DNA of 63,965 nt, counting the filler, from Malassezia furfur (Eukaryota), in assembly GCA_052055015.1 (NCBI GenBank). It is 4 parts of 4 records of this genome, joined end to end, with 100 filler letters (N's around TTAATTAATTAA, not from the genome) between each part and the next. Parts side by side here need not be neighbours in the genome. Positions count along the whole stretch, not along the records: positions 1 to 16,679 come from JBQJIT010000243.1; positions 16,780 to 33,419 come from JBQJIT010000244.1; positions 33,520 to 50,067 come from JBQJIT010000245.1; positions 50,168 to 63,965 come from JBQJIT010000300.1. One strand, 5' to 3'. The position numbers and the translations under genes are program-made. The notes below the pieces were generated by a model. That model made no database searches. It was not told the DNA's origin and saw nothing but the letters and a program-made list of their open reading frames with translations. Shown piece after piece: positions 1 through 61,800 of the stretch. The first letter of the stretch is position 1; each line of letters starts with the position of its first letter.

Positions 1-502
1 CCTTCTTGCCGACCTCGTCGATGCGGTTCTGCACCGCCTGCGTGTGCTGGCCACGCGCCTCGTTCAGGATGCCGGCGATTTTCTGCGTGAGTGCATGCGA
101 CGTACGTCAATCGTCGAGTTCGCCCACTCCGTGTACGGCTTCGCCGTGGCACGGCCGACAAACGTCGCGAAGATCAAAAAGGCGGCAAGGATGACCGACT
201 CATCGTTCGCGACGTACAGCTCGTTCGAGACGGTGAACGCGGTGAGACCAGCACCGAGCGTGACCCAGGTCGTCTTGGAGACCAGGCTGTTGCCAGGGAG
301 CGCGTCGAGCAGCGACGCAGCCTTGGCATCGGGCGTGGGCTCTGCGATCAGATAATCAAGCACGTACTGTCCGAGAAGGCGCGGGTAGCCAGCGCCGGGA
401 CGGTCTGACGGGGGACCGATGCAGCGAGAGCACGGCGAGTCGCGGCTAGGTGAGCAGGCATGACGCACCTTGCGCACTGCGGGTAGCGACGCGGAACACC
501 AT
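1..502 (-). CDS. ATP4: Mitochondrial ATP synthase subunit b (subunit 4); 3' part runs off the window
   Basis: Spliced protein MVFRVATRSAQ..PDAKAASLLDALPGNSLVSKT..SNELYVANDESV. GT-AG introns 446-468 (23 nt), 342-367 (26 nt) and 83-105 (23 nt) restore the frame. Confidence 0.9.
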
Positions 503-653
503 GACAATGGGCTTGGTTGGCAAAATCAACCCTCGCGACGCCGAGCAGCCCCGAGCCGGCCGGGCCCGCTGGCGCTCACGTGACACCACGTGGGGGTAGC
601 CGGCTTTGTGTCCGGGGGTGTGCGGGGTGAGTGACTGGTCGTCCGGCACGAGG

Positions 654-2117
654 ATGTAGGTGGTGCAACGCGCTAACGCAGGGCGTACCAGATATCGCGC
701 AAGTTATGGGCGAACATCAATCGGTTCGCCGAGTTCCCCCAAACGGGTGTATCGCTCCGACAGATGGTCATGTTCGGGCGGAACACCAACCCAGGCACCC
801 TGCTGCTCGCCAGTCAGTTCCTCATGGGTACGTGGCGCCCTACTCACCACAGAGGAGCTCCCCGTGCGCCTCGCGCACCGTGTCAAGGAGCTGCATGAGC
901 TCCCGTACGACCTCTCCAAGATGCCTTCGATTGTCAAGGTGAAGAACTGGTACGCGCAGTCCTTCGAGGAGCTCGTCCAGTTCCCCACACCCTGCCTCCC
1001 GGACTCAATCCAGCGCCGGCTCGCCAAGACCATTGCACAGGATGCGGGACAGGACTCCGTGCCCTCTACACCAAATCCGAGCCTGGGCGAGTCAGCCGCG
1101 CTCGAGGACGGCGTGTCCAAGACCCACCTCACCGCCAACCGCAAGTGGGGCAATCGCGTCGAGGAGCAACGCAAGCGGCAGCCGATCCTCAGCTACGGAA
1201 CTCACGCCAAGCTGGACGACATCAAGTGGCCGATGGAGGTGATCGAGTACAACAACAACTTCACTCGCTGCCTGGAGCGCATCAAGCGGCGACACGACGC
1301 GACGGTCACCACCGTCGCCCAGGGCGTGCTGGAGTACAAGCGTGCCAAGAAGAGCTCGGCGGATCAGGCGGACGTACAGACGTTTCTTGACCGCTTCTAC
1401 ATGTCGCGCATCGGCATTCGCATGCTAATTGGGCAGCACATTGCACTCGGGCGCTCCATCATGGACCGCAAGGGCGCCCTCGAGTACATCACCGGCGGCG
1501 GTACACAGGGTGCGTTGAGCGACGCGAGCGGTGCCGAGCCGGAGCAGTATGTGGGCATCATCTGCACGAATACCAGCGTCGGCGCCGTGGCGCACGAGGC
1601 AATTGAGAACGCGCGCTTCGTCTGCGAGGAGCACTACGGCCTCTTCCGCGCGCCGCCCGTCCAGCTTGTGTGCCCCAAGAACCTGACCTTTATGTACGTG
1701 CCGAGCCACTTGAACCACATGCTCTTTGAGCTGCTCAAGAACTCGCTGCGCGCTGTCGTTGAGCGCTATGGCACGGACAACGAGGACCAATTCCCGGCCA
1801 TCAAGGTGATCGTTGTTGAGGGCAAGGAAGACATCACGATCAAAATTAGCGACGAGGGCGGCGGCATCCCGCGCAGCGAAGTGCCGCTCGCATGGACCTA
1901 CATGTACACCACGGCCCGGGAAGAGGATCTGGACCCCGACTTCCAGTCGTCCGACTTCCAGGCGCCCATGGCCGGCTTCGGCTACGGCCTGCCGCTCGCA
2001 CGGCTCTACGCGCGCTACTTTGGCGGCGACTTGAAGCTGATCTCCATGGAGGGCTATGGCACCGACGTATACCTCCACCTGAACCGGCTCTCGTCGAGCC
2101 GCGAGCCGCTGCCATAG
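654..2117 (+). CDS. Mitochondrial pyruvate dehydrogenase/BCKD kinase (PDK family, GHKL ATPase)
   Basis: Motifs FPQTGVSLRQMVMFG, EELPVRLAHR, DRFYMSRIGIRML, ELLKNSLRA, DEGGG, GFGYGLP. Introns 656-681 (splits the ATG) and 828-852. Confidence 0.92.
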
Positions 2118-2159
2118 TCGATGATACCTCTTGCAAAATCATGTACACCGCTACTTCTC

Positions 2160-4734: not shown

Positions 4735-5693
4735 CTATGTACTCAGTTCTCGCTTCACGGCCTCATATACGACAAACTGCATCAGTCATGCATCCCACGT
4801 ACCAGTGCCGCATTCGCAGGTATCGCACGGAGTACCGTCGTACTCGCTCCGGCAAAGAGCGCACCTAGGCCGCCTTGGCGGTACGTCGCCCGAAGTACCG
4901 GCCAGAAGCCAGGCGTGTGGTTCCGGAAGGAGGAGATAGGCTCTGCCTGGATCCTCGTCTTGACCACATCTGCCCAGTACGTTGCCAGCCAGCCGACAAC
5001 GCCGGCAAGGGCGCCGGACACGGCCATTTCTGCATTGCTGAGCTCCGGCTTGGTCTCTGTATGCATTAGGAGCATCCACCGGTTTAGCAGTGCATAGGTA
5101 AAGAAGTAGGGACCATAGCCAATGTCCCGGATGCACGTTGCGCCGAAGCCGTGGAAGAAGGCACGCAGGCCACCGGCGCGCCAAACACCCTCGATCGCTT
5201 GCACGTATGTCGTACGCTGCGTTGCAGACGTGTTGATCTGCTGCTGAATTTTGAAGAGCTCCATCGGCGAAGTGATCAACGCCGACCCAATGCCACTTGC
5301 CATGCCGGCCAGGAACGTTTGTGCCAAGGTCGGCTCCACAGTACGCGCATGGGCTCCTTGGAGCATTGCGAGCGAAGCATCGTACAGGAAGAATATAGAC
5401 GCATTCATGGCCGCTACACCCAGCTGGATTAGTTCCTCACGCACCATAGGGGATAACACGCCCTTGTACAGCCCCACGACGCGCTCTTCACGGACAATGC
5501 GCCCAAACGCATTGAGCGTACCGGTATAATGAATCGCCAAAAGGGGCACCCCTGGTAAGAGCGGCTGCGTAGGACCAACAGGAGCCTGCGCCTGCAGACG
5601 TGTCTTGACCGTGTCAAACGGGTGGCCCACGACCACACTCGCGATCCCGCCAGCCGTTCCCGCGAAGAATTCGACCCATCCCGGCGGCAGCAT
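4735..5693 (-). CDS. Mitochondrial carrier (SLC25; basic amino acid/carnitine-type)
   Basis: Three carrier signatures: HPFDTVKTRLQ, PMELFKIQQQ, YWADVVKTRIQ. Introns 5424-5444 (21 nt) and 4777-4802 (26 nt) give SPMLGVA and ANAALFVVYE. Confidence 0.9.
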
Positions 5694-5790: not shown

Positions 5791-8700
5791 ATGTCCGGCG
5801 TCCCCACCGAGCGGTTGATTGACATCGACCCGGAGCAAGGACAGGCTCCTTCAACGGTCGAGGACCAGCATGGTGTTTCCGAGAAGGTAGCCCCGCCGTC
5901 GAAGCGCACGAAGCAGAAAGGCGATACGCAGTCGTCGTCTAAACGCTTCGTCGGTCTTCCTTTGTGGGTTTGGTTCCTGCTTGTCACCCTCTTCGTGACC
6001 AACAAGATTGACAGTGTGGAAGATGCAGTGAAGGGCGTCGTCTCCAACACATCCAGGCTGCGCACGGGCAAGAAAATCCGCGAGTCGGACCGGGAGCAAT
6101 GCAACCTGATCCGCGGACGCGCAGGTCCCCCACCGAAATTCGACAAACGCACCCAGAACGATCGTTTTTACGCTGGCACCAAGCCGACTCTCATTCGTAA
6201 TGCCACCCTGTGGGACGGCGAAGACATTTCGCACGAGATGGACATCCTCCTAGACAACGGCCTGATCGCCTTTGTGAAGAAATCTGGCTCGAGCGCCAGC
6301 GCACGGACGCATGGTGCCCATGTCGTCGAGGCGCACGGCCGCTGGGTGACGCCGGGAATTATCGACTTGCACACGCACCTGGGCGTGATGGGCATGCCTA
6401 CGCAGCCCACGACCATGGACGGCAACTCCTTCCGCGGTCCGACGCGTCCGATGGTGCGCAGCATCGACAGTTTCAACGAGCACGACCAGGACCTACACGC
6501 AGCAGTGGACGGCGGGATCACCTCGGCGCTCGTCCTCCCGGGATCGCTTGACAATATCGGCGGACAGGCCTACCCCATCAAGCTCGGCAAGCTGCACGGA
6601 CGACCCCCCAGCTCACGCGTGTTGGACCCTCCGCGTAGTATGGTGATGCCCGGGGAGCGCGAGCATGGCCGCGACGCCTTGTACGAAGCCTCGACAGGAA
6701 TGCATCGCAAGGACCACTCGACGTCGTTTCGCCAGATCAAGATGGCGTGCGGCGAAAATGCGCGCAAGTATGGGCTCGTGCGCATGGACGAGGCATGGAA
6801 CTTCCGCCGCGAATTCGAGCGTGCCCAAAAGTTGCTTCGGCGCCAGGACGATTTCTGCGACGCGCTCTACGGCTCGGGAGCCCCGGAAGAGCCGAGTTTT
6901 CCCTCCGAGCTGGAGCTCGATTCGCTGGTCGATGTGCTGCGTGGGCGCACCAAAGTGCACACGCACTGCTACACGATGAACGATCTCGACGCCATGGTGC
7001 GGCACTCGACCGAGTTCGGTTTCCCCATCGCGGCATTCCACCATGCGCATGAGACCTACCTGGTGCCCGAGCTGCTGCACAAGGCCTACGAGCATCCACC
7101 GGCCGTGGCCATGTTTAGCCAAAACGCCAACTACAAGTACGAGTCGTACTTCGGCACTCCTTTCGCTGCGACACTCCTTCGTGCTGCCAACATCACCCCC
7201 ATCTTCAAAAGCGACCACCCTGTGCTGGACACGCGGCGCCTGGTGCACCAGGCCGCCGAGGCGCACCACTATGGCCTCGCCGAGGTGGATGCACTGAAGG
7301 CGGTCACGTCGGCCCCTGCGCACGTCCTGGGCCTCGCGCACCGCATTGGCCACGTCAAACAGGGCTGGGACGCCGACCTAGTGCTGTGGGACCGCCATCC
7401 CTTGCAGCTGGGCGCGACGCCGAAGCAGGTCTTTATCGACGGCGAGGCACAGCTCCGCAACCCGACTGCCTCGGGCGAGGACGTGGCCCACACCGAGCAG
7501 CAATCGACGCCGCGGCAGCCCGACTACTCCATTGAGCTAGCGCGCGTCGAGGCGATGGAACCGGCGATCGTCGACGACCGCGCGTTCGCCTTCCCCACGC
7601 CCGACGAGACGGTAGACCACGCTGTGCTCTACAACCTGTACCAGTTCTTCCACCGGCGTACCGACGGACACGGCACGCACATCGTCGCCGAGACGTTCCA
7701 CGATGGCAAGGGCGTGCTGGTGTACGCGAACGGCTCGCTCGTGTGCGTCGGCCGGTCGGACTGCATGGCGCTTGCACCCAAGCATGCCCGCCGTGTGGAC
7801 CTGCACAACGGTACTGTGATCCCCGGCTTGGTTGCGTACGGCGCGACGCTGGGTATTGCTGACCTCCCGGCAGAGTCCACGGCGAACGCAGGACAGGATG
7901 CTTCGGATGTGAACGAACATGGTGAACTTGCATCGCGTGTGACACCGCGCGCAGTCGACGAGCTGCTCTGGGGTGGGCACGACCTGCTCCGCGCGCACGC
8001 AGCGGGCGTCACCACCGCGGTGAACGCGCCCAATGTGGACGGCCTCGTGGGCGGCATTTCGGCGCAGTTTGACACGAACGTGCGCAACATTCTGGACGCG
8101 TTCAGCGTGCGTGCCTCCGAGGTGGCCATGCACGTCCACCTCACCCATACGGGGCCGTCTTGGGCGTCGCAGATCGGCGTGCTGCGCCGCGCGCTCCTAC
8201 ACCCGCCTACGGACGAATGGAAGCGCGTGGCCGAAGGGAAGCTGCCGCTCGTGGCTAAGGCCAACGCGCAGTCCACGATCGCCCAGCTCGTGCTGCTGCG
8301 CAAGGACTTCCCACGCGTACACCTCGTCCTGGACTCCACGGCGCCGCTGCACCTGCTGGCCGAGCACCTGTCCGCGCACCACATCGGTGTGCTGCTGCCT
8401 CCAAAGGTCTGGGCGTACCAATGGGATGGCTTGGACCGCCTGCGTGGCCCACCGTTTACGCAAGACACCGAGATAGGCGTGTTGCTGAAGCACGGTGTAC
8501 GTGTGGGCGTGCGGATCGAAGAAGCCTGGGAGGCGACCAAGCTACTATGGGAAACTGCCTGGGCGGCGCAAGAGGCGCACGTCGCCGATCCCGCGCAGGT
8601 CCTGGAGTTGCTGACGACCAAGTACGTGTGTGTGTGTGCTGACCCAGTGTCGAAGCGCTGCTTCGCCTGCCTGCGGCCCCGGGTGCCGACTTTGTCGCCT

Positions 8701-8812
8701 TCGACGTACGTCCCCCTGCCCTGCCACGTGCTGACCGCAGAGCAATCCGTTTGTGTACGGTGCCAAGGTGCTCGCCATCGGCACGCCGCGTGCCCTCGAA
8801 CTCTTTCTGTAG
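5791..8812 (+). CDS. Two-domain metal-dependent amidohydrolase with an N-terminal membrane anchor
   Basis: TPGIIDLHTHLG, KMACGEN, HCY, HHAHE, KSDHP, IGHVKQGWDADLVLWD, followed by a second degenerate barrel. Introns 8622-8647 and 8706-8740 give the C-terminus ..DFVAFDSNPF..LELFL*. Confidence 0.85.
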
Positions 8813-8996: not shown

Positions 8997-9544
8997 TTAG
9001 ATGTACGTGTCGTAGGGCTGGGGAGCCAGCGTCACGGGCAGGTTCTCGTTGGTCGAGATGGTGTGGCCGTTGCGCGGCTGCGCGGGCTGACGCTTGAGGT
9101 CGACGTGCTCTGATGGTCAGTGGTACAAATACATACCGCCCCTCTCCTTGGCAGCGCGCTTGGCAGCCGCGTTGGTCTTCACACGGTTCAGGAAGTCGTC
9201 ACGGCACTTGGAGTGACGGACGTGCTCGACACGAAGGTTGACACGCTTCTCGATCTTGCGGTTGCCCACGGTCTTGTAGATAATCACACCCACTGATGGT
9301 TAGTATGTTGTTGCTCAGGTTGTCACATACCAGCACGGGGGAAGACGCCGTACACGACACCAGTGCGGCCCTGGTAGTACTTGTGCGGCATGCCCTTCTG
9401 CTCACCCGGGTCGGCGACAATGTCGACAATGTCGCCCGAGTGGAACGGCCTCAAGTAGCGGCTGACCTGAACCTGGCCATGCTTCTTGAACTGCTTGGCA
9501 AACATGTGCCTAGTGCGGGCCCTGTAACCATAACTGTGCGGCAT
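8997..9544 (-). CDS. RPL21: 60S ribosomal protein eL21
   Basis: [42 protein letters not shown]. Introns 9293-9330 and 9110-9136. Confidence 0.97.
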
Positions 9545-10544: not shown

Positions 10545-11679
10545 TCAACGTCGCGCATTGGCGTCCTTCAGCCGCGACTTGAACCGATTCAGACGCTGGT
10601 GGTTGGCAATCCGCGCGCGGTGCTCGTGGTCGTTGCCGCTGCCGCTCACATGGCTGCGCGGCGCGACCTGGAAGCCGGTCGTGACCGCCTGCGGAATGCC
10701 CACGTGTCGGCGCGTCTTGTCGGTGGAGACCGTGGCGCTGGTCACCTGGCTCGACGGGTTGTGTGGCGAGTTTTGGTACCACTCGGCCTGCGACACATGG
10801 CGGTCGCGGTACGACGCCGAGCGCTTGAGGATTGGGCGCGTCCACACCTCAATCAGGTGCTCGGCGCTGCGGCGGATGGGTGTTTCCACACGCTCGCACA
10901 GGCTGTAGAACACCACGACGCGGCCCAGCCCGCTCATCTTCAAACTGATCGTGTCGATCGTCATCTTCTCCAGCACACCAAATAGCTGCTTCTGGATGTT
11001 GAGCGCCGGCAGACTGCGGTCCGGCAATGGCTCCAGCCATCGCTTGACGCCCTCGAGTAGGTTGTTGTCCATAATCGCCTGGTGCAAGTGCGTCTTTTGC
11101 AGCGTGCTCACTACACGGGGAAGGAGGCGCAGCTTGGCCGTCGCGGGCTGCTTGAACTTGTTCGCCTCCTCGTCCTCATCCGCGGCAATGATCATTTCTG
11201 TCCGCAGTGCCGACACTTCTTCGTCGGCCATCAGCTCGAGATCGTCCTCGCCCGCAGCGCGACGGCGCGTCGACCGCCGCTTGCCCGCCTTGAGCGCGGC
11301 GTCAATCTGGGCATTCACCTGGGCACGAATCACTGCGGTGAGCCACGCAACGACATACTCTCTTTGGTTGACATGGCCGGCTGCTCCTCTTGCTCTTCGT
11401 GCTCCGATTCTTCGGCAGCAGGCGGTGCTGCCTCCTCCTCGTCTGTGCTCTTGCTCTTTTTTCTGTTGTGAGTGCACCGGGTACCTACTTCTTCTTCGGC
11501 AGGCTGGTCAGCGCGTCGTCCGCGCTGTCGACCTCCTTGCGGGGGATGCTCGGCAGCTGCGCTTCCTCGGGCGCCGGAGCCTCGCCGTGCTGTGACCCCT
11601 CGTCATCCGAGTCACCGCCTATGTGAGTCAAATGCGCACACGCACCAAAGATCTGCCGATGGTCTGCGTCGTCCGACAT
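10545..11679 (-). CDS. IWS1: Transcription elongation factor Iws1/Spn1
   Basis: [51 protein letters not shown]. Introns 11619-11645, 11463-11488, 11333-11358. Confidence 0.93.
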
Positions 11680-13861: not shown

Positions 13862-13928
13862 AAAAACATAATTGTCTCTTACGAGACACTCTTCTCTGAT
13901 CATGATTGTCATCCTTACTGCAGGGACC

Positions 13929-14346: not shown

Positions 14347-16414
14347 ATGCCCGACCAAGACCTCTTACAGTCGTTCGACTCCCTGCACGTCGGGCGCGCG
14401 GCGTCGCCTGCCGCGCCCCACGCCGAGGGCCGCGCTAAGGACAGGTCCTTTGCACCCAACAGCGCCCCCCTTGATGCCCCCCTCTCGTTCTCTCCTTTCC
14501 ACCAGCCGCGCACGCTGCCAACGACGCCGGAGGGCGGTGCACCGAACCTGTATGCGTCGCGCTTCCAGCATTTGTTTGCGAACGGCGTCGGTCCCGTCGA
14601 CGGCGGCGGGCATGCCGACGCCGACGTGTTTGCACAGCCGGGTCTCGCACCGCCCGCCGCCTCCGAGCTGGGCCACAACACTGGCTTTGACGCGGCGCCC
14701 GGCGCGGCGCCAGGCGGGCGCACGGGGGTGCCCTTCTTTTCGCACACATGGGCAGCGCCGAATGCGGCGGCCCATGGCGTGTCGTTCGGCGCACCTGGCT
14801 CGGACCGCGGCACGGTGCTGGCGCCGAGCGCGCTACCGGCGCCACTGCAGCTCGGTACGGGCCCCATCCGCTTTGGGTCGCAGCTGCCGAGTGCGCCGGC
14901 GCCGAGCAGTGGCGAAAGCGACATTATTCCAACGGCGATCGTGATCAAAAACATCCCCTTCAACATCAAGCGTGAGCAGCTACTGCATGTGATTGTACGT
15001 CGAGCGACTAACGCAGCGTGATCTGGGCATTCCTGTGCCATATGCCTTCAACTATCACTTTGACCAGGGCATTTTCCGTGGCCTGGCATTCGCCAACTTC
15101 CACTCGCCCGCCGAGGCGAGCGAGGTGGTCGCTGCGCTCAACGGGCTCGACGTCAGCGGGCGCAAGCTGCGCGTCGAGTACAAAAAGGTGTTGCAAGCCG
15201 GCGAGAAGGAGCGCATCGAGAAGGAAAAGGCGATCAAGCGCATGCAGCTGCCGCATGCCGGCGACAAGGAGCGCAAGAAGGACAAGGCGCTCGCGCCCGA
15301 GCTGGGCCACCTCCCGCCGCTCAGCGTGTCGCCCGTGCCGCGGCGCATGGCGTCGCTCAATTCGGTGCTGCTCAACGGCTTGTCACCCCCGTCAAGCACC
15401 TCGTCTGTGTCGCCCAACGCGCACAAGGAGGTGAAGGGTAGCCTTGAGGCGGCCATGAGCGGCGCCCACCCGCCGCCCTTCTCCCGCCCACACGACACGT
15501 CGAACGACGCGCCACTCGACTTGAACGACGCCGAGACGCTCGAGATCTACTCGCGCGTGCTCCTCTTCCGGGACGACCGCATGCGTGATGAGCTCGCATT
15601 CAGCAAGTCGTTGACCCCCGCGGAGCGGCGCACCGTGCACCTCGTTGCCCAGAAGCTCGGGCTGTACCACTACACGATTGGCGCGCCGGACGACTGCTAC
15701 GTGCTGGTCAGCAAGTGGGAGCGCGGCACCCCCACCTCGGCGTCCACCCCCGAGCCGCGGAAGGATCTGCGCGCGAAAAAGTCGGTGCCCGACATGAAGC
15801 GCGCATCGCTACACCACGACCGCGACGCGCTGTACGAGTTCCAGCGGGCGACGTCAGCACGCAGCGGCTTGCTCGCGCCGACGCTGCCGATGAGCTCGCA
15901 TGCCTCCTCGGGCAACCTGCGCGAGGCCGGTGGGTTTGCCCAGGACCGGCACCTGGACGCCTTTGCGCACCTCGGCCCACCGCCCAGCGCGGGTGGCAAC
16001 GTGTTTGCGTCGCCCTTTGATATCCCCGTGGTGCCGCACCTCGCGCGCCCGACGAGCGCGGACATTGAGCGGCTCGAGCCCTACCCGAAACACCCGCATC
16101 CGGCGCTCTTCCGCTCGCGCTCGCCGCTGGCGCCGCCACACACGGGTGCTGCATCACCGGCAGGCGCCCTGTCGCACAGCACCAGCGCACTCGACAACGT
16201 GGGCGCCGCGCCACTGCCCGGCGCGGGGGCAGCGGGCCTGCCGCACCGCCCGCACCCCACGCGCAATTTGCCCGTGGATCTGATGCTTGACGGCCACGCC
16301 CCCAAATCCCGCATCCGCATTCCCCGTGCCTCGAACGCCTCGACGCCCGACCTGAAGCGCGAGGCGCGCAAGCTCCACGATGCCCATGCCACGGACCACG
16401 ACACGACCTCATGA
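14347..16414 (+). CDS. PIN4: RRM + R3H RNA-binding protein, Pin4-like
   Basis: IIPTAIVIKNIPF..PYAFNYHFDQGIFRGLAFANF..GRKLRVEYKKVL and R3H motif ERRTVHLVAQKLGLYH. Intron 14995-15016 (22 nt). Confidence 0.9.
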
Positions 16415-17681: not shown

Positions 17682-18422
17682 TCAAAAGTTGTCGGTGCGC
17701 GTCGTATACGCCGAAATGTCGACGTCGGGGAAGGGGTCGTCACTCATGCGCATCGGCTCATCGTCGGACGGCGCGCCGGGCAGGTTGTGCATCCCGAACG
17801 CACTCGGCGACTCGCGCAGCGGCGGCATCGACTTGGTCGCCTGGAACGGCCCCCGCGACGGCAGTGGCCGCATCGTGCGCCCCGTGTCGAGCGGCCGGTT
17901 TTCGATATTCGTGTGCGACGCCGGCCAGAACGATTCGTCGTCGTCAAACGCATTCGCGAGGATATTGTCTGCGTCATCGTCGTCCAGTCCACGCTTGGGC
18001 GCAATGACGTTGAGCGACGTATTCGCCGACTCGGTGTCCGACGACCACTGCGAGAACATGTTGGCGTCTTGCGACGACGGCGGCGGCATCGCCGTGCCGC
18101 GCAGCGCGCCGGTCGGCATCGTCGCGGTGCGCCCCCACTGGTGGAAGCTGCTTTTGACCTCCTGGAGCGTGTTCTGTGCATTCGTAAAGTGCCTCGGTGC
18201 GCCCAGCTCCGAGGCGCGTGGGCCACCCGCATACCCGCGGTTCACGTCTGGGTGAGTGTGTGGCTACGCACTGGCACGGATCCGCCAGCTCATGGACTGC
18301 AGCTGCGCCTGGATCTCGGGCGGAATGCTCGCGTATTCGGACGAGGTGCGCGCGAGGCCGCGCCCCTCGTGCTCGCGCTGGAGCACATCGTTTGAGCTAA
18401 TCGCACGCTTGCTCATGGTCAT
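17682..18422 (-). CDS. Spd1/Dif1-like ribonucleotide reductase inhibitor (HUG motif)
   Basis: IPPEIQAQLQSMSWRIRANVNRGY after removing the stop-containing intron 18248-18271 (24 nt). Resembles the HUG motif (Q..L..VGMRxRKSV..GY). Confidence 0.65.
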
Positions 18423-18631: not shown

Positions 18632-19013
18632 TTACACTTCGAGGTCGTACGCGAGAACGTCTGAAGAGGTGTGAGCAAGCGCTCCCGGGGGCGGCGGCAC
18701 TTACCGTCGACGTTCGGGATGAGGTTCATCTTGGCAAAGCTGCGGTCAGCCGAGCACGTCGCACGTACTCCTTGTGGTCGTTGTCCTCCTTGTACCGCTC
18801 CAGACCCTCGCGCGTGCGGAAGACGGTGTACAGACCGTAGTTGAATCCATGCGCACGGGCGTCCCACACCGGCGGGCCCCACTTGAGCTGCAGCACCTCG
18901 TCCTTGGTCACCTGGAGATCGCGCAGCGTCTCGAGACGCGCCTTGAACTCCTCGAAACCGTTGGTGAGGACCTGCTGCTTGACCTTGACGAGCACGATGT
19001 GGACGTACACCAT
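18632..19013 (-). CDS. Dabb-family stress-responsive alpha/beta barrel protein
   Basis: VHIVLVKVK..RAHGFNYGLYTVFRTREGLERY..H..VLAYDLEV*. Introns 18740-18768 and 18661-18704. Confidence 0.85.
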
Positions 19014-19051: not shown

Positions 19052-20083
19052 TTATTTCCGAGACGCGCCGGGGTCGGTGGAGGCCCGCACTTTCGCCTCG
19101 TCCCACAGGTCGCGCTGGCCATACACGCCGGCGACAATGGTCAGCAGCATCCACGCGCCAGATTCGCGTTCGGGCGCATACGCATCGGCCATCGCAGTGC
19201 CTCGCGCGTGGGCGGTCCGGTAGTTGACTAGGAGCGTCGTGCATGTGCGTCCCAGCGCGCGCAGCCCTGCGATTTCCTCGCTGAGCAGCCGCCGGTCGAG
19301 GCGCGCGAGGAGCGCAAAGAGCCATTGTGCATGGAGTGGGTGGACGGCATGCCACATCGAGGTATCTTCGTAGACGCGCGTAAAGTAGGGCTGCTGCGTC
19401 CACTTGCGGATGTACTGGATGAGCTTCAGCGTGTCGGACTGCGTCAGCATACGACGTACCGTGTCGAGCGCTGCAATGGTGCGCGCCTGCGGCGCACAGT
19501 ACACAAATCCATAGTTGTCCACGAGCGGGTCGCCCGTCGGCACCTGCTCGACCGCGCCGTCGATGTCCCCTTCGGACGCGCTCTCAAACGCTTCCGACTC
19601 GTCGATCTCGCCCGTCATCCTCCGCTTTTCGTCGGCATTGGGTGCCTTGCGCCCATGTAGAAGATGGAACCAGGCGGCCTCGTCCGACACGGCAGGAATG
19701 CGCGTGCGCGGCGCGTCGGGTGGGGGTGTGGAAAGGATCTGGGGGTCAGTCGCCGGCCACGCACCTTGTGCAGGCGCTCGTAGCGCTGCAAGAACACGGT
19801 GCGCCACTTGGCCGTGGGCACAAACCCTGCCGTCTGGGCGGGCGTGGATGGCGCAGACGGCGCGTCGGCCACGCTAGGACGCTCCACATGTTGTGCACTG
19901 TACAGGATCGGGGGTTGCAGATTCGCTTCGCGTCTGTGTGAGGCCTGGCACGTACCGCACCATCGCCAGATACTGCTCGCCATCCAGTGGCACGCCATCG
20001 AAATCCAGCGGCAGCGTCGCGACGGGGAGGCTCGCTTGGCCATACTCGCACCGGGCGCCCGGCCGCACCCCACGACCGTGCAT
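19052..20083 (-). CDS. GEMIN2: Gemin2/SIP1 (Brr1-like) snRNP assembly factor
   Basis: QASLPVA..GVPLDGEQYLAMVRREA and QWLFALLARLD..LRALGR..VAGVYGQRDL. Introns 19934-19955 and 19739-19764. Confidence 0.85.
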
Positions 20084-26627: not shown

Positions 26628-26868
26628 CTACATATCGAGCGTGTACGTATTCTTTTCGAACTGGGTTAGGCAGTGCACGTACCTCCGCCTCGAGCAGCCC
26701 CTGCAGCGTTTCGACCATGCTCGTGTTGACGAGCACGTGCGTCTCGTCCAGATCCATCACGATGCACGGCGTGTGCTCGTCAATGGCGAGGATCATCTGC
26801 TTCACCGCGACATCACTGTGTGAGCGTGGCACGTACCAGCTGAACAACGTGCCGGCATAAGCTCGCAT
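26628..26868 (-). CDS. TFB5: TFIIH subunit p8/Tfb5
   Basis: MRAYAGTLFSCDVAVKQMIL..DLDETHVLV..EAEFEKNTY. Introns 26816-26836 and 26661-26682. Confidence 0.9.
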
Positions 26869-26925
26869 GGACGAGGGTCGGTAAGCTGAGTCAGCAACGT
26901 ACCCCGCAACTGGCTTCTCACCAGG

Positions 26926-50167: not shown

Positions 50168-51646
50168 CGGTGGCCTCCAGCTCGGCGGGCTCGACGCGCG
50201 CTGGAGCAGGCACGGGCTCCGACACGCGGCGCGCGCCCGCAGCGCTGACGGCCACGGGCTTGGTAGGCGTAGCTTTCGTAGGCGTGGCCTTGGTGGGCGT
50301 CGGCTTGGACGGCGTCGCGGCCGCTGAGGTGGGCAGTGGCGTGGACGGCGCCGAGTCGCGGGGCGTCTCGTGCGCGGCGGCGGCGGCCGTCGGCACCGCG
50401 CCGAGGCTTGCCGACACCGGCATCGTCGGCGTCGCGGACGGCGTCGTGCTCGGCGATGCAAACGTGTCGGTGGCCGAGCGCGGGAGCGTTGCTGAGCGCT
50501 CGGCGAGCTGGCGCTCGAGCAGCTTCTGCTGGTAGAGCATCTGCTCGCGGTACACCTGGCGCTTCTTCGCCTGCTGCTCGATCGCGGCGCGCTCCAGATC
50601 CTGCACCGAATAGCGGAAGAGGTCGCGGTACGGCGCAAGCCAGGGGTGGGCCATGACCTCGTCGAGCGTCGCGCGGTGCGCGGGGTCCGGGACGAGCATG
50701 CGGAGCAGGAGCGAGCGCGGCTCAGGCCCGATGTAGTCGGGGAACGTGAGCGGCGTCGCCATGATGTATTTGTACAGCAGGTTGATGTTGTCTCCGTCCG
50801 GGTTCGCGGGGTCGTCGTCAAACGGCAGGTAGCCGGCAAGCATGGCGTAGAGGATGACGCCACACGACCACACATCGACGGCCGCACCGACGTACATGCC
50901 GTCCTGCACGACGAGCTCCGGTGCCGCATAGCACGGCGAGCCGCAGCTCGTGGCCATCAGGTCGTTTTCGCGCGCGGAAAAGTTGTTGGCAAAGCCAAAG
51001 TCGGTGATGATCACATTGCGGTCGCGGTCGAGCAGCAGATTCTCGAGCTTGAGGTCGCGGTGGATGATCTTTTTGCGGTGCAGGTACGACACACCCGAGA
51101 TGAGCTGGGCAAAGAGGCGGCACGCGTCGCGCTCCTTGAGGCACTTGTGTGCCAGGATATAATCGAACAGCTCGCCGCCCGCGCCGTATTCGAGCACGAT
51201 GCCAATGTACCGCTCCGACTCGATGACTTCGTACAGATGCACAATATTGGGGTGGCGCAGCTCCTACATGGTCAGTGATGTGCACAACGTACATTTAGCA
51301 CCTGGATCTCGCGTTCGACCTTGCTGATCTTGGACGCCTCCGCGTCGTGTTCCTCGGCGGCGGCGACCTTTTCGCGCTTGATGAGCTTAATCGCCACCTC
51401 CTCGCCATACGCGCGGTGAACGCCGAGCTTGACTTTGCCGAACTCGCCCTCTCCAAGCGTCTGCAAAAGAAGATAGTCGCCAAAGTACACCTGCGGCCGA
51501 CGCGGGTGCGCGGCAAAGTAGCTCAGCGCCGTAGGCGACGTTACCGGCAGCTGCCCGGGCGCACCAGCCCGCGCAGCATCCAACGCCGTGTCCAGCGTAC
51601 CACCGACGGTATTTGCCGGCGCCACTATGGCCTCCGCCGTGGTCAT
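50168..51646 (-). CDS. KIN4: CAMKL Kin4-family Ser/Thr kinase, 3' end truncated by the gap
   Basis: LGEGEFGKVKLG, HRDLKLEN, DFGFAN, TSCGSPCYAAPE, PFDDDPANPDGDNINLLYKYI. Intron 51264-51292. Confidence 0.92.
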
Positions 51647-55383: not shown

Positions 55384-56231
55384 ACCGCTGCCGTGCCATC
55401 TGCATGAGCCACCCAACGTCCACCTACCGAGCGCAGCATCGCCATCGTAGCCGCCTCTTTGCTTTGCAGCGCCGCGACCCGCTCGTTCCGCGCGGCCGCA
55501 CGCTCCGCGGCACGCTCCTCTTGCCGCCCCTGTCGCCGCTGCGCCTGCCGGTCGCGCTCCGCCAGCCTGGGTCAGCAAGTCACGCCCACGTACGCATCCT
55601 GGAAGCTGTTCCCGAGACCCAGTAGTGCATCAGTTGACATTGTGTCGCCCACGTCGTCGTCTACATCGCGCCGCTCGGCCATCGCGCGGTTCGACGCAGC
55701 GACTTCGCGCCGACGCTCACGCACTGCGTCGCGCCCGGTTGCACGCGGCGCCTGCTCCTCGGCCCATTCTTTCGCGTCACGCCGCTCAGCACGTCGCGCT
55801 CGCTGCGCCGCACGCCGCGCCTCTTCCTGGGCGCGCTCGCGCTCGTATTGCCGGTCAGCTGCCGAGCGCGGTGCGTCGGTGCGCGGCGCCGACGCGGCGC
55901 CTTGCGTGGTCCGCACCGGCGATGCACTGCGCGGCCGCGCACCAGGCCGCGGTGGTGATGCACTGCGCCGCAGTGCGCCTTCATCCGCAAAGCGCCAGCG
56001 GTACCGCGTGCCTTGCACCGGCGCAGCCGTCCCCGCATAGTAGCGGTCGCTCAGGCGCCCATCGTTCCACCGGCGCACGAACCGGGCAAAGTAGCGCCGC
56101 GCGTCTTCGCTGGGCATCTCGTCCAGGTAGTGGTCACGCTCCTCGAGCCATGCGCGGAACTCGCGCGCGCGTGCATAATACGCGTCGTACCCTAGCCGCG
56201 GCGCACCGTGGGGCAGCGCCGGCAGCGTCAT
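55376..56231 (-). CDS. Conserved Arg/Glu-rich nuclear protein (style cell-cycle inhibitor 1-like family)
   Basis: YY..EFRAWL..ARRYFARFVRRWNDGRLSDRYY..KEAATMAMLRSMARQRF. Introns 55567-55593 and 55400-55427. Confidence 0.75.
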
Positions 56232-56259: not shown

Positions 56260-58225
56260 CTACGCTACGGGAGACATACTGAACAGCTCGCCCTCGGCCT
56301 CGCTCGGCGGCGAGGTCGTCGCGTGCACCGAGAGCGCCTGCGCGCCTGCGCGCTCTGGCATGTGTGTATCCAGTGAGAGCGATTGCATCCCACGTGCAAC
56401 GTCCGGCGGCGCCGCTGCCGACGACGCGGGCGAGGGTACATCCGACTCGTCGTCGTCCGGCGCGGCCGCGGTGCCGCGCACCGGCGCAGGTGACGCAGGA
56501 ACGGAGCGCGCGGAGCGCATCGGCATGGGCATGTACGGCGGCATCATGGGCGTCATACCGGGGGGCACCATCATGCCGAACGGCATCAACGCCGCCGGCC
56601 CCAGCTCGGTGCGCGGCGCGCGCTCGGGGGTGGTGCCGCGCGGCAAACCTGGCGCCGGAGTCGTCGGCGGTGCAAACATCGCAGGGTTGGGTGGGTATGT
56701 GACACCCTGCATTGCAGCGGCGCCATAATGCTTGCTGAAGTCGTCGAGCGGCACGGCGCCACTCGCCCCAAACGGCTCGCGCGGCGCATGCCGGGGCAGG
56801 GAGCGCGAGCCCGTTGACGTGTCGTGGTGCCGCCGCGAGCTGGGGAAGTCGGGTGCGCGGGAAAGGCCGTCCTCGCGCTCCTCGCAAAGCTCGTCGAGGA
56901 GTGCTGTCGCACGGGCACTGCGGTTCGACAGCAGGCGCCCTGCGCGCATAAACTCGCCACGGATCGTATAGAGGCCATCTTTGGTAACGGTGCGCGACAC
57001 ATTGTACCCGTGTTGGAACGGGTCTTCGATGCACAGATGCTCGCCGCTCCACCCTCGCGACTCTTTCGTGACGAGGCCCGCCTCGGTGTGGATGGAGATG
57101 GCGTCTTTCGCGTAGTTAAAGTCGCGTGAAAAGTACCGGAAGAAGTCGAGCATCAGTTCGCCGACCGAGTCGGTGCACAGCGAATGCCACTCGCGCCGGA
57201 GCGTGTCGATATCGTCGTAAAAGTACACATTGCACCCGTCCAGCTCCGCCTCCTCCGGCGCGAGCGGCCGCCCGGGCGGGATGCGCTGCAGATTCGGCAG
57301 CACGTTGGGGCGCCGCACATGGATCAGGTAAAAGAGGACGAGCAGCGTGTAACCGTACGAGGACAGCGTGCCCGTGTACGGCGAGTTAAGTTTCCGCCGC
57401 TTGGTCCACACTTTGAGGAAGAGGACGAGCGTGCGCAGCCGCGCAGGGTCGATCATCGCGTAAGACAGCAGCAGGCGTGTATTCTCCAGTGCGACCTGGT
57501 TGTCGAAGCCAATATCGCACGCAATGTCGCACGGCACCTCGCTCGTCGCGCGCCGGCTGATCTTGATGATGGGGATCCGTGCCTTAGGCAGCGGCAGGAC
57601 CTGGAAGTCGGTTTCTGTATGAGCACGCCACGTACCTTTGCGGATTAGCTCTCCTAAGATCTCGACCATCTCGGACGCGCTCCGGTGCGCGTCGTGCGCG
57701 TCGTCGTCGCCATGAGGGATCATACAGCACAGGTCCATGTCTGGGTCAGTGGCGCAACGTACCTGAATTGCGCAACGCAAAACCGTTTGCCATGCTCCCA
57801 AATGCGAGTAAACGTGCACCGGGGCACACACGCGCCGCGAGCTGCTCGAGCTGCCGCCGCGTTGCCTCCTTAATCTTGTATTCGCGGTCCGTCGGAAGCA
57901 TCGGCTCGAGGATCTCGATCATCGCGCGCGCGAGATCGGCCGTATGCCGCTCGTAGGTCTGCATACCGCTCCCAACAGGGCCGCGCGAGCGTCCACGCGG
58001 CTGCGCACCAAGCGCGCTGCCGGCACGATCCGCGGGCGGTGCTGGGACGCGAAACGTTTCGCGTCCATACGGCCCGTGCATCGGTGCATGCGGTAGGTGC
58101 GGATCGGACGATACGGACCGTGGTCTTCGAGGAATGGCATCACCCCACACCGGGCTGCCCGCTCCCGGGGGCAGCTGCACGGCGTGCATTGTTACCGGCA
58201 CAACGTGGGCTGGCGCCGGCTCCAT
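56260..58225 (-). CDS. Cid1-family terminal nucleotidyltransferase (poly(U)/poly(A) polymerase)
   Basis: FGSMANGFALRNSDMDL (after intron 57741-57762), ARIPIIK, CDIGF, GTLSSYGY, CIEDPF..YNV. Confidence 0.9.
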
Positions 58226-58450
58226 GGTCGAGGCGGGGTGGGCGTAAATGGAGGTGCGTATCGGGGGAGATCGGACTACGCTACAAGAGGGGTAGCGCGC
58301 ACGTACGGAACCAGCGCCATACGCGCGGTACAGACGACGTGTGCGTTTGCGCACACGCACATGCACGGGTTATGGCCGCGCACACGCGGCGCGCGCGCAG
58401 CGCTCGCACCGGTAGGCGAGCGGCGCAGGGTATGTGATCAGGATCGGGCG

Positions 58451-58753
58451 CTAGGCCTCCTGGAGCTCGGCGCGCAGCTGGTCACGCTCTTCCTTCGACA
58501 CCTGCGTAAGTATGCGATGCAGATGATGTGCTCAACGTACCTTCCAGAACCGGTTCTTGCGCGGGACGTATGGCACGAGGCGCACGTTACTCGGCAAGTC
58601 GACGCTTTGGAGCTTCTCGAGCACGGTCGGCGCGGCGGGTGCGGGCGTCGCGCGCTTGGCGGTCTCCGCTGCCTGGCGCGTCACCGCCTGGTGGATGCGC
58701 AGGTTTTGCGGCAACGGCCGGATGTGCAACAACCGGGGCACACTCGCCAGCAT
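58451..58753 (-). CDS. Small (87 aa) hypothetical protein with a mitochondrial presequence-like N-terminus
   Basis: MLASVPRLLHIRP..LPSNVRLVPYVPRKNRFWK|VSKEERDQLRAELQEA*. Intron 58502-58540 has a CTTAC branch site. Confidence 0.6.
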
Positions 58754-58819
58754 CGTCGCAGGACGAAGAAAAGCGCACGTGACGTACGCGTTCCGGTCTG
58801 TGCGCCGCCCACGAGCGTG

Positions 58820-61800
58820 ATGTTGGCGCGGCTGCTGGCGTATTGCGTCGAGCAGATCGCGCTTGATGGCGAACAGGGTAGGTAACATACAATCGCTTAT
58901 GTTAGGCACGGACGTAGAACGTGTGTTTGCGTTCGCGGCCGAGTGCACCGCGCAGAGAGGTGTGCGCGTGGTCCTGGACGCACCCTATCGTGCTTACGTT
59001 TGGGAGGCGCTTGTCGCGCATCCCGACGTGTACGTGGGCGTGGCAACAAAACGAGCCACGCAGAAGAATGAGAGAAGAACCTCGGTGCTTGGCAAGGCGA
59101 AGCCTGCGTCGCTCGCGCCTGACCGCATCGCGCCAGGGCCGCTGGCGGCCCTGCAGGATATGCATGGCGATGCGCTGCGCATCGCCGTCGATGTGCAGCG
59201 TGTGCGGCGCCTGCTGACGGGTACGGATGACGAGAACTACCTGTCGCCCGCCGCCTATGTGGTGCTGCAGCATGTGAGCCGCGCACGCGCCACCGGACTC
59301 ACCGTCGTAGAGCTGGGCAAGGTGACGCATTATGACCAGAAGACAGTGTTTTACCTCGTCAAGGCGCTGGTAGAACGCGACATGGTGTACGTTGCGCGAC
59401 TGATGCAGGGCCAAGTTTGCCGCGCCCGAGATGGGGCACGTGTCCAACTACGTCGTGGGCAAGGCCTTCTTGGCGGACAACCCCCAGTGGCAGGCGCAGC
59501 AGAACGCGCCGGGCGACGCGGCACATGCCGAGGATGCGCAGCCCAAGTGGGTGGATGTTGACCGCCTTGCGACGATTGAGCAGCAGCGCGAAAGCGACGA
59601 CGAGGACGACGACGCTTTGCCCGAGCTGGCGGTCGAGGGCCCCACGAGCGAGGGGTCCGATATGCTTGCCTTCCCCCTGTTGTCTGAGGAGCAGAGCAAG
59701 GTGTGGCTGCACAGCCGGCAGGACTTGCTGCGCCAACGGTTGTTTGCGCTGCTGCGTGCGTCGCCCGCACACATGACTCCGCACCGGCTGCTCGCGACGC
59801 GCCTCGGCCTGCGGTCCGTGCCTGGGACGAAACGTGCGCTGATCGCGTTTTTGAACCGCAACGTCGCGGCCGGGTACGTGGAGCGCATGCGTGTACAGCT
59901 CGGCCACTTGACGCCGCTGTACCTGCGCGCGACCGAGCGCGGCCTACACGCGCTGCCCGACGACGGCGCCGCCGACGCGGCATCGGACGTGTCGCTCGCC
60001 TCGTGGACTATCGAACGCGAGACGAGCGTGGAGCAGCAGCTGGTGTACTACATTTCCGCATGCGGGCCGCGCGGATGCACGCTGCATGAGCTCGCGACGC
60101 ACTTCCACGCGTCCACGGACGTGAAGCGCATGATCGAGCAGATTCTTTCGCGGCAGACCGCCCCGCCGTACACACCGCTCACCATCTGTGCGCCGTTTGA
60201 GCAAGAAGGGCGTGAGCGGCGTATCCGGTACTATACGTTTGCCGCTTTCCAGGTGCGGTGCGCCGAGGACGGCGTCGACCTGGCCGCTGCGCTGGGACTC
60301 ACGCCCCACGCGCCAATCCCAACGGCCGCAGCGGCGCTGCCGCCGACGCTTCCAGGTGAGGCGGCGTTTGTCGATACCGATGCGTATGCTGCGGCGCTTG
60401 CGGGCCTGCAACGGCATGAGCTCGGTTTCTTCCGCGACGCAGCGGGACCGGTGGCGCTGCACAAACGCAAGGCGACCAACGTCGACCCAGTGACCGGGCG
60501 GCCGAAGCGTGGGCGGCCGCGCAAGATCAAGGCGGAGGACCATCCTACGCCCGCAGCCGAGACGGCGGCCGAGGCGCCTACGCCGGCCCCCGTGCCGCCC
60601 GTGGCGGCGGCGCCGCGTGTGCCTGACGCGTGGGCGCAGCTGCAGCCGGCGCCCGTGCGCGCCGATGCGCGGCGCACCAACATGAGCACGTTTCACCGGA
60701 GTACGCTGTTGCTCTCGGCCGTGGAGAACGCGGGCGGCGCCGTCGACGAGCTCGATGTGCCGCGCCTTTTGCAGCATGCCGAGGGCCCCGACCTGGCCGA
60801 CCGCACAACGCGCACCAAGGTGATTGACGAGGCGGTGCGCCGCGGGCTGCTGCGCACGACCAAGGTGCAGCGCGATGCCGGCGACGCCCACCGCCAGCGC
60901 ACGATTTTGTACCTGCCGACGCTTGCGGCCGATCAGCTACAGGCCGTGGTGCGGGCCGTGGTGCAGGGCCGCAGTGCGAGCCGTGCTGGCATCACGAAAC
61001 GCACCAACGTCACGGGCGCCGAGGTGGGACTGCTCGATGCGGCGCCCGCGACGCTGCCGTGGGCGACGTCAGACAAGGTGCCTATCGCGCCAGCCGACGA
61101 GGGTGGCGCCCCCCTGCCTGATCCGGCTGACGATCCCGCGACGCGGCACGCGTTTGCGCGGCTGTCTCACGTGCTGCGCGCGTTCTATGGCTTTGTCCAC
61201 GGCGCGGCGGCGCGACTGCATCTCTTCCATGTGGCGGCGGCAACGCAGTCCACATCGCCGATCGTCGACCTCGCTTGGTTCTGGACCGCGTGCCCGGTGT
61301 GGACCTATGTCGCGCTCGTACCCGTTAAGCTACGCACACGCACGGTGGTGCGTACGGTGCTGAGCGAGGCGGCACGCACCATGCCCGTGCACGAGCTGCC
61401 CGAGCCGGTGGCCCAGCGACTCGGCCTGCGCCGCATCAAGGCACATGCCCTGCGCTTCCAGAGCTATGCCGAGCAGCTTGTATCGCTCGGCGTCGCCGTG
61501 CGCGAGGGCGCCGAACGGTACCGGCTGTGCACCGACGCCAATGTCGACGGTACGTCATATGATTTGCGCACGCGTGAGGGACTGGATATGTATTGGGCGG
61601 CGCTGCGCGCAGCGTATGCACCGGCAGGTGGCGACGAGGGCGAGGGTGAGAGCGCGGGCGGCGCGGAGGAGAACGGCCGCGCGGCGGAGCGCGCGCGTAC
61701 GCCCCCCCGCCTGCCGTTCCTGCGCATGCACCACGCGTGGCAGGACACGTTCCACCTGCGGCGCCCGCAGAAGGCGTTCCTGCGGCGCTACTCCCAGCAC

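Follow-up and report, generated by a model that had tools for sequence, protein, structure and literature searches.

Introns of the yeast genus Malassezia raise the question of how short a spliceosomal intron can become in a free-growing fungus and what sets its lower limit. Malassezia genes have been described as carrying very short introns (PMC7426719; here and below, cited papers are drawn on in part). The curated annotation of M. sympodialis holds 5350 introns and 4493 genes, with a mean intron of 30 bp and 99% RNA-seq support, and gives the intron size distribution as a supplementary figure (PMC5389616), while for M. restricta the median intron is 30 bp, with minimum lengths of 20 and 15 chosen in annotation (PMC9241646, PMC6473144). 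In the portions seen, only averages or single cases appear in the genus-wide comparison and in the first M. sympodialis paper, and our literature search found no paper on the lower length limit or the branch position of Malassezia introns. We therefore analyzed a stretch of 63,965 nucleotides (nt), hereafter the window, from the M. furfur assembly GCA_052055015.1, for which an original prediction had proposed ultra-short GT-AG introns with a hard 21-nt floor and a branch adenosine (A) fixed at position 16. The 59 introns curated here very probably represent U2-dependent GT-AG introns compacted to a rigid minimal plan with two lower limits, 16 nt from the 5′ end to the presumed branch A and 5 nt after it, as judged from their sequences.

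Length, layout and coding context of the introns

Both strands of the window were scanned with a strict pattern (donor GT[AG]NGT, first CTNAY, first YAG), which returned 82 matches, 56 of them 21–29 nt long (10, 13, 6, 6, 3, 9, 4, 2 and 3 matches at 21, 22, 23, 24, 25, 26, 27, 28 and 29 nt, respectively). Chance levels were taken from Markov-1 shuffles of the window, with 2.2 matches of 21–29 nt expected in a run of 50 shuffles (maximum 6) and 2.76 in a run of 150 (maximum 10), indicating an about 20-fold enrichment of this length class. The excess over chance was restricted to 21–29 nt and its onset was abrupt, at the 10 and 13 matches of 21 and 22 nt. At 20 nt or less, 1.03 matches were expected and one independent match (17 nt) was observed, besides four sub-matches lying within a GT run, and above 29 nt the 21 matches were at the chance level of about 20, four validated introns aside.

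From the 56 strict matches of this class we removed 60082–60102 (minus strand), 38118–38143 (plus strand) and the nested 8626–8647, and we added two 23-nt introns outside the strict pattern (21918–21940 and 35576–35598) as well as four longer introns. The curated set comprises nine introns of 21 nt, 12 of 22 nt, eight of 23 nt, six of 24 nt, three of 25 nt, eight of 26 nt, four of 27 nt, two of 28 nt and three of 29 nt, together with one each of 35, 38, 39 and 44 nt (median 24, mean 24.9, mode 22, none below 21), and 55 of the 59 fall into the narrow band of 21–29 nt. The original prediction had given the same histogram except at 21, 22 and 26 nt, where it listed 7, 13 and 9 introns. Lengths divisible by three occur in 20 of the 59 introns, with no sign of avoidance, and the other 39 would shift the frame. 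In this 59-intron, 64-kb sample the 21-nt floor is sharp, with no shorter intron in the set and shorter matches at chance level; the "hard floor" of the original prediction is a generalisation from 59 introns, a number that statistically leaves room for a true fraction of about 5% below 21 nt (binomial bound).

All 59 introns begin with GT and end with AG. Donors are GTACGT (33), GTGCGT (10), GTAGGT (7), GTATGT (7), GTAAGT (1) and GTACGA (1), with GT[AG]NGT in 58 of the 59. The branch motif is CTCAC (20), CTGAC (19), CTAAC (5), CTTAC (5), CTGAT (4) or another form (6); CTNAY is present in 58 introns and TTCAC in one, placing the presumed branch A 5–11 nt before the end. Acceptors are CAG (55) or TAG (4), and in none of the 59 introns does an AG intervene between the presumed branch A and the acceptor. 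U12-type introns are characterised by an extended RTATCCTT donor and a TCCTTAAC branch consensus; no U12-type donor or branch sequences were found among the 59 curated introns.

The presumed branch A lies at position 16 (10 introns), 17 (13), 18 (nine) or 19 (six), the remainder forming a tail, and never before position 16. It is followed by 5 nt in 42 introns, 6 nt in 10, 7 nt in five, and 8 and 11 nt in one each, never by fewer than 5. Between the donor hexamer and CTNAY there is always a spacer of at least 6 nt, in which nearly all of the length variation sits. Because only 5–8 nt follow the branch A in 58 of the 59 introns, there is no room for a polypyrimidine tract, in line with the original prediction. 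Likewise, a minimum of 16 nt up to and including the presumed branch A, together with a tail of no fewer than 5 nt, makes 21 nt the smallest possible intron, with its A at position 16. The predicted fixed position is indeed present in 9/9 introns of 21 nt, as a consequence of these two separate minima; among the 22-nt introns, 11 have A17 followed by 5 nt and one has A16 followed by 6 nt.

The seven 21-nt introns listed by the original prediction were all recovered at their coordinates with one common layout, that is GT[AG][CG]GT, 6 nt, CTNAY at positions 13–17 (A16), one further base and CAG. Two more exist, at 19439 and 57615, which are invisible to frame logic because they are stop-free and in frame. 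The nine introns of this class are:

5424..5444, minus strand, mitochondrial carrier gene; A16; UCP1 and UCP2 lack the 7 residues (VREELIQ) that read-through adds
19439..19459, minus strand, Gemin2/SIP1 gene; 7 residues absent in annotated orthologues (five records, four Malassezia species)
23320..23340, minus strand, GatA/HER2 amidotransferase gene; exact 7-residue insertion relative to 3/3 PDB chains and 13/13 aligned homologues
23438..23458, minus strand, same GatA/HER2 gene; exact 7-residue insertion relative to 3/3 PDB GatA chains; Pfam Amidase positions 72 and 75 on either side
25873..25893, plus strand, mitochondrial TPR protein gene; in-frame stop after 2 codons if retained
26816..26836, minus strand, gene of TFIIH subunit Tfb5; splits a Cys codon (TG, T)
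31307..31327, plus strand, PAP2-domain gene; in-frame stop; called from motif and open reading frame (ORF) logic only; first exon of 18 codons
39991..40011, plus strand, RAD5-like helicase gene; phase 0, no in-frame stop; read-through puts VRDALTQ between ..GVIF and SQFTGFLDL
57615..57635, minus strand, Cid1-like nucleotidyltransferase gene; exact 7-residue gap in 18 of 20 representative homologues

Homology across the junction, at the protein level and in the form of profile continuity or homologue gaps, is available for 14 introns, including seven of the nine 21-nt introns. Pfam profiles continue across the junctions at 9293, 22627, 23438, 27223, 51264 and 57741. For GatA, 13 homologues among 120 listed were aligned; the insertion at 23438 is seen relative to all fungal homologues covering the site (12 of the 13), and eight further homologues agree at both GatA sites. 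The homologues used at 57615 were 20 of 150 listed, chosen since their match starts before the site; the two without the 7-residue gap are the identical unspliced ORF call and a homologue whose divergence precludes a judgement. PDB alignments of Gemin2 and the Cid1-like gene did not span the intron sites, which the homologue sets did. SNF2-family alignments begin directly after the intron at 39991, and the alignment to yeast and human TFB5 begins directly after that at 26816, at C-D, the N-terminal length fitting the spliced form only. The remaining two 21-nt introns, at 25873 and 31307, were predicted to carry in-frame stops and do so within two codons; both were accepted on ORF logic only. 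The exon upstream of 25873 has 44 presequence-like codons from an ATG at 25740; no homologues of this first exon were found among longer proteins, and this intron is without homology support.

Coding frames were evaluated with a codon-bias score trained on the long ORFs of the window, by comparing the best frames upstream and downstream of each intron with splicing. Frames and splicing agreed in 51 of the 57 curated introns tested, one third being expected by chance, and the six misses adjoin very short exons or gene ends.

Public protein collections provide a further view of the same sites. Protein records of M. furfur, M. brasiliensis and M. japonica are already without these segments, while unspliced ORF calls read through stop-free 21-nt introns, which gives a phase-0 pattern V-R-x-x-L-T/M-Q; public entries carry intron-coded residues because non-splicing gene callers translate such introns. 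At the 19439 site, ORF calls of 99%, 87% and 60% identity read VRRMLTQ, VRCVLMQ and VRAKLTQ, in which the middle varies freely while the residues that encode GT.CG. and CT.A..CAG are retained, as fits an intron whose signals are conserved and whose spacer is unconstrained. Five relatives have unspliced GatA calls that lose the frame just past ..RYG, where the window has a 25-nt intron. Translated with read-through, the GatA-like gene matches an M. furfur record at 95% identity, the mismatch being almost wholly the two intron-coded 7-residue segments, and the next matches are M. brasiliensis (85%) and M. japonica (65%); the DNA is therefore that of M. furfur or a very close relative.

At the 19739 site, the 87%-identity relative (entry P0122) has seven extra in-frame residues, VRDRLTQ, fitting a 21-nt intron of the same layout. 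The length of this orthologous intron thus varies among close relatives, with 26 nt in the window and an apparent 21 nt in P0122.

Taken together, enrichment, coding frames and homology across the junctions indicate, at the level of sequence, that the short GT-AG segments are real spliceosomal introns, as originally proposed.

A proposed splicing plan and its alternatives

In the plan, a spacer of 6 nt or more separates GTRNGT from CTNAY, and YAG follows, usually after one further base; this plan would be read by canonical U2-dependent splicing through intron definition. The 3′ splice site would be the first AG, a fixed few bases past the branch point; the minimum 5′ spacer would let the 5′ splice site and the branch site be recognised without overlap and the lariat close; and the minimum 3′ tail would leave space to place the 3′ AG at the catalytic centre. 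From these sequences we infer that the segments are removed from RNA, which nucleotide serves as the branch, and that the two minima represent binding room. The window also holds a U6 small nuclear RNA gene (13877–13981, minus strand; Rfam RF00026, 77.8 bits, full length), with an intact ACAGAGA box and AGC triad and without an mRNA-type intron.

Several observations weigh against this reading, at least in its strict form. The branch A was assigned from the motif alone. For about 20 of the 59 introns the evidence consists of the motif together with ORF or codon-bias logic, and six of these fail the codon-bias agreement. The upper tail of the length distribution may be incomplete, as the systematic examination covered introns with the motif and strict matches of up to 62 nt, six further matches being longer. 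In 13 of the 20 multiple-of-three introns there is no in-frame stop, and retention, which by sequence and phase would add 7–9 residues without a frame error, is for that reason invisible to frame logic. Finally, two sites point below 21 nt. One is an uncounted 17-nt candidate (26886..26902, minus strand) that matches the motif perfectly, has A12 and lies 18 nt before the Tfb5 ATG, about one such match being expected by chance; the other is the GT run at 8622–8647, with donor-like sites every 2 nt, of which those giving introns of 20 and 14 nt stay in frame.

It is possible, though on balance we think it unlikely, that assembly itself is modified, as the original prediction proposed, for instance by sequential binding of U1 and U2 or by altered or missing bridging factors, since a distance of 16 nt between 5′ splice site and branch site lies below the conventional pre-catalytic span. 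Human B complexes need about 50–52 nt between these sites and assembly fails when the distance is shorter (PMC6692369), so with a minimum of 16 nt some pre-catalytic geometry would have to differ here; a similar steric conjecture is in print for the ciliate Stentor (PMC9505925). Such an altered geometry would apply to all ultra-short-intron lineages alike. The M. furfur signals are, however, full-strength and yeast-like, U6 is canonical, and the spacer of at least 6 nt always parts the donor hexamer from CTNAY, as expected for simultaneous binding by separate factors.

Equally doubtful in our view is a soft floor, in which the step at 21 nt would arise from having sampled 59 introns and those of 14–20 nt would be rarer but present, especially in untranslated regions or as in-frame segments. 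The perfect-motif candidate in the Tfb5 leader, the in-frame donors of the GT run and the statistical room for shorter introns are all in keeping with it, as is the minimum intron length of 15–20 used by the M. restricta annotators (PMC6473144). Yet matches of 20 nt or less do not exceed chance before the abrupt rise at 21 and 22 nt, and a scan of the window for GT..AG pairs of 8–60 nt that restore strong coding frames returned no case below 21 nt with a consensus donor. The alternative GTGTGT donors of the GT run are used nowhere else in the curated set. As a separate observation, the 17-nt motif lies in a divergent spacer of 57 nt that separates the ATG of Tfb5 (minus strand, 26868) from that of the thiamin pyrophosphokinase gene (plus strand, 26926) in the region 26866–26928.

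Partial retention of some stop-free introns of 21, 24 or 27 nt in the mRNA pool, by which 7–9 residues would be added as tiny alternative segments, seems improbable. The 13 stop-free, multiple-of-three introns among the 59 and the lack of avoidance of such lengths would allow it, but homologues never carry the extra residues, insertions would break the GatA core, the SNF2 ..IFSQFT.. sequence and C-D of Tfb5, and the middle of the segment is unconserved as a peptide among relatives. That the segments are chance motif matches or lineage-specific coding insertions is refuted for the class as a whole: two to three of the 56 matches are indeed spurious (38118, 60082, nested 8626), equal to the chance expectation, but the about 20-fold enrichment, the 39 frame-shifting lengths and the Pfam continuity and exact gaps in homologues leave this reading with hardly any probability.

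The other introns and their genes

The other curated introns, in order of genes along the window, are:

446..468, minus strand, 23 nt, ATP synthase subunit b gene; motif; frames consistent, codon bias weak; first exon of 34 nt
342..367, minus strand, 26 nt, ATP synthase subunit b gene; motif; stop after 6 codons if retained; frames consistent
83..105, minus strand, 23 nt, ATP synthase subunit b gene; Mt_ATP-synt_B match stops at the last residue before the donor; frames consistent
656..681, plus strand, 26 nt, BCKDK/PDK-like kinase gene; apparently splits the start codon (AT, G); codon-bias scores gave no clear frame
828..852, plus strand, 25 nt, BCKDK/PDK-like kinase gene; BCDHK_Adom3 begins at residue 1 of the downstream exon, profile position 29; frames consistent
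4777..4802, minus strand, 26 nt, mitochondrial carrier gene; spliced reading ..IPANAALFVVYEAVKREL.. versus a stop after 6 codons
8622..8647, plus strand, 26 nt, near the 3′ end of a 986-codon ORF; contains the GT run; frames consistent
8706..8740, plus strand, 35 nt, same gene as 8622..8647; motif; frames consistent, weak scores
9293..9330, minus strand, 38 nt, ribosomal protein L21e gene; Pfam L21e 1–71 upstream, 73–101 downstream; phase 1
9110..9136, minus strand, 27 nt, ribosomal protein L21e gene; frames consistent; stop if retained
11619..11645, minus strand, 27 nt, Med26/TFIIS-N domain gene; motif; frames consistent
11463..11488, minus strand, 26 nt, Med26/TFIIS-N domain gene; frames consistent, strong scores
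11333..11358, minus strand, 26 nt, Med26/TFIIS-N domain gene; frames consistent
14995..15016, plus strand, 22 nt, R3H/RRM protein gene; frames consistent, scores 14 and 13; stop after 8 codons if retained
18248..18271, minus strand, 24 nt, unnamed 238-codon gene; in-frame stop if retained; frames consistent; spliced ORF coherent
18740..18768, minus strand, 29 nt, Dabb (stress-responsive A/B barrel) gene; Dabb match stops at the donor; frames consistent
18661..18704, minus strand, 44 nt, Dabb gene; sole GTAAGT donor; 11 nt after A; ORF logic only, codon bias weak
19934..19955, minus strand, 22 nt, Gemin2/SIP1 gene; spliced model gapless relative to annotated M. brasiliensis and M. vespertilionis orthologues
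19739..19764, minus strand, 26 nt, Gemin2 gene; orthologues continuous over the junction
21719..21740, plus strand, 22 nt, second mitochondrial carrier gene; frames consistent
21918..21940, plus strand, 23 nt, second mitochondrial carrier gene; branch TTCAC, outside the strict pattern; from the coding-frame scan
22627..22651, minus strand, 25 nt, GatA/HER2 gene; Pfam Amidase positions 305 and 312 on either side
25083..25105, minus strand, 23 nt, RTC4-like gene; RTC4 match begins at downstream residue 1; frames consistent
26013..26036, plus strand, 24 nt, TPR gene; frames consistent, scores 17 and 19
26255..26278, plus strand, 24 nt, TPR gene; in-frame stop if retained; frames consistent
26347..26373, plus strand, 27 nt, TPR gene; two overlapping CTGAC; frames consistent; an 18-nt in-frame sub-match has a poor donor
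26433..26456, plus strand, 24 nt, TPR gene; frames consistent
26661..26682, minus strand, 22 nt, Tfb5 gene; stop after 5 codons if retained; spliced C-terminus readable
27223..27244, plus strand, 22 nt, thiamin pyrophosphokinase gene; Pfam TPK_catalytic 3–48 upstream, 50–104 downstream
27675..27696, plus strand, 22 nt, thiamin pyrophosphokinase gene; the sole 22-nt case with A16 and 6 nt after; TPK_B1_binding stops at the donor; frames consistent
31722..31743, plus strand, 22 nt, PAP2-domain gene; PAP2 match stops at the donor; frames consistent
35144..35166, minus strand, 23 nt, FCP1-like phosphatase gene; frames consistent
34484..34505, minus strand, 22 nt, FCP1-like gene; NIF match stops at the donor; frames consistent
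34181..34205, minus strand, 25 nt, FCP1-like gene; frames consistent, scores 17 and 12
34000..34025, minus strand, 26 nt, FCP1-like gene; BRCT match begins 3 residues past the acceptor; frames consistent
35344..35372, plus strand, 29 nt, APC10/DOC1 gene; required to connect the sole upstream ATG with the conserved frame
35491..35514, plus strand, 24 nt, APC10 gene; ANAPC10 profile 21–54 stops at the donor
35576..35598, plus strand, 23 nt, APC10 gene; donor GTACGA; required to join two conserved APC10 frames
35706..35728, plus strand, 23 nt, APC10 gene; frames consistent, scores 13 and 16
37808..37829, plus strand, 22 nt, RAD5-like gene; HIRAN match begins at downstream residue 1; frames consistent
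38482..38504, plus strand, 23 nt, RAD5-like gene; joins the HIRAN ORF with the SNF2 exon; frames consistent
40196..40219, plus strand, 24 nt, RAD5-like gene; Helicase_C match reaches the donor; the next exon has 52 nt, blurring the codon-bias test
40272..40293, plus strand, 22 nt, RAD5-like gene; motif; phase set by the 52-nt exon; strong downstream frame
51264..51292, minus strand, 29 nt, protein kinase gene; Pfam Pkinase 3–52 upstream, 55–263 downstream
55567..55593, minus strand, 27 nt, unnamed 266-codon gene; frames consistent; spliced ORF coherent
55400..55427, minus strand, 28 nt, unnamed 266-codon gene; ORF logic; codon-bias frames disagree
57741..57762, minus strand, 22 nt, Cid1-like nucleotidyltransferase gene; Pfam MTPAP-like_central 2–57 upstream, 59–138 downstream; phase 1
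58502..58540, minus strand, 39 nt, small unnamed gene; in-frame stop if retained; frames consistent, scores 11 and 12
58878..58905, plus strand, 28 nt, TFIIIC B-block subunit gene, at its start; called from ORF logic only; an intronic ATG is an alternative unspliced start
59387..59408, plus strand, 22 nt, TFIIIC subunit gene; frames consistent, scores 15 and 14

In the BCKDK/PDK-like kinase gene, an ATG upstream of the conserved N-terminus is obtained from the spliced reading only, the unspliced ATG directly preceding TAG (654–682).

Among the rejected candidates, the 26-nt match 38118..38143 (plus strand) lies in a coding frame that reads through it, the ORF from HIRAN to SNF2 being continuous, and the 21-nt match 60082..60102 (minus strand) is antisense to the TFIIIC gene, with the higher antisense coding score. 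Coding scores likewise led us to reject the antisense motif matches 803–847, 1083–1127 and 59265–59302. Longer options at 27199–27244 (46 nt), 35144–35189 (46 nt) and 627–681 (55 nt) were discarded in favour of nested shorter introns that fit the Pfam profile or the frames better; the 46-nt alternative at the 27223 site would cost eight positions of the TPK_catalytic profile. Relaxed-motif in-frame matches of 15–18 nt within exons (e.g. 23077–23091 and 24902–24919) have poor donors and lie in well-scoring coding sequence. An assignment of the gene at 25.5–26.6 kb as SGT2-like was also rejected, its translation being a mitochondrial TPR protein.

The G+C content is about 65% across the whole window. 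Linkers of 44 N, TTAATTAATTAA and 44 N stand at 16680–16779, 33420–33519 and 50068–50167; TTAATTAATTAA is of the six-frame-stop type, and the window is an artificial join of four pieces (about 16.7, 16.6, 16.5 and 13.8 kb), with genes truncated at the piece ends. A single open frame at 31252–32779 (plus strand) carries a PAP2 domain and, more than 100 codons further on, a cytidine/deoxycytidylate deaminase domain, and may be either a fusion or a pair of neighbouring genes whose frames run together in GC-rich DNA.

Short introns in Malassezia and elsewhere

The nearest comparison is with other members of the genus, whose introns are of the same GT-AG kind and of comparable density. As the original prediction had allowed, short introns were already known in Malassezia, as the curated M. 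sympodialis mean attests. In the portions seen, however, the papers on other Malassezia report means or medians, whereas the window gives a median of 24 and a mode of 22, and nothing is said there of a 21-nt step, a branch minimum of 16 or a fixed 5-nt tail. Malassezia is not named in the parts seen of the 2025–2026 papers listing the shortest introns (PMC12316389, PMC13644364). Very short Malassezia introns being known and annotated, the rule 16 nt + 5 nt = 21 nt, drawn from 64 kb, is a modest addition.

The introns of Stentor coeruleus, at 15–16 nt, likewise form a narrow size class at a lower limit, and their branch A, at position 10 of 15 or 11 of 16, is 5 nt before the 3′ end as in M. furfur; the steric argument on a tight lariat loop is made there in print (PMC9505925). 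The Stentor branch region is U-rich without a strong consensus and the loop has 10 nt, whereas the window shows strict yeast-like motifs in GC-rich DNA and a minimum of 16 nt. A strong branch consensus, the lack of a pyrimidine tract and a near-invariant distance from branch to AG are shared with Yarrowia lipolytica, Trichomonas vaginalis and Giardia lamblia (PMC2483917), the fixed distance in Y. lipolytica being described also in PMC13309789. Introns in these species are, in contrast, not ultra-short overall, with a median of 204 nt and 1–2 nt between motif and AG in Y. lipolytica, and in Ustilago maydis, a related smut, the branch consensus is weak and the median intron length is 95 nt (PMC2483917).

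Tight length distributions of spliceosomal introns well below 30 nt, as observed here, are found in Mikrocytos mackini (16–17 nt; PMC10245619), the Bigelowiella nucleomorph (18 nt) and Trichomonas (23 nt; PMC12316389), and in myxozoans and dicyemids (medians of 22–27 nt; PMC13644364). Unlike these other ultra-short lineages, which are parasites, endosymbiont relics or ciliates, M. furfur is a free-growing, culturable and transformable basidiomycete yeast, for which Agrobacterium transformation and CRISPR editing are available (bioRxiv 10.1101/638429).

These features bear on what limits intron size, a mechanistic question that is still open and has been studied until now in biochemically awkward systems (ciliates, parasites and nucleomorphs). 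The distance of 16 nt is about one third of the roughly 50 nt needed by the human B complex. Our tentative suggestion, held at somewhat less than even confidence, is that this yeast routinely splices at 16 nt between 5′ splice site and branch site with full-strength signals and a canonical U6 and that, if the minima hold genome-wide, its pre-catalytic spliceosome differs in arrangement or assembly from the solved yeast and human complexes. The signals are strict and easily mutated, and the two minima could therefore be separated with reporter introns trimmed on one or the other side of the branch point. In practical terms, annotation pipelines need a minimum intron length near 20 nt, and entries with the V-R-x-x-L-T/M-Q pattern (e.g. 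P0121, P0122, P0124 and P0129) could be mined for introns in unannotated Malassezia DNA. Overall, if the two minima hold genome-wide, M. furfur would be the most tractable system for studying how ultra-short introns are recognised.

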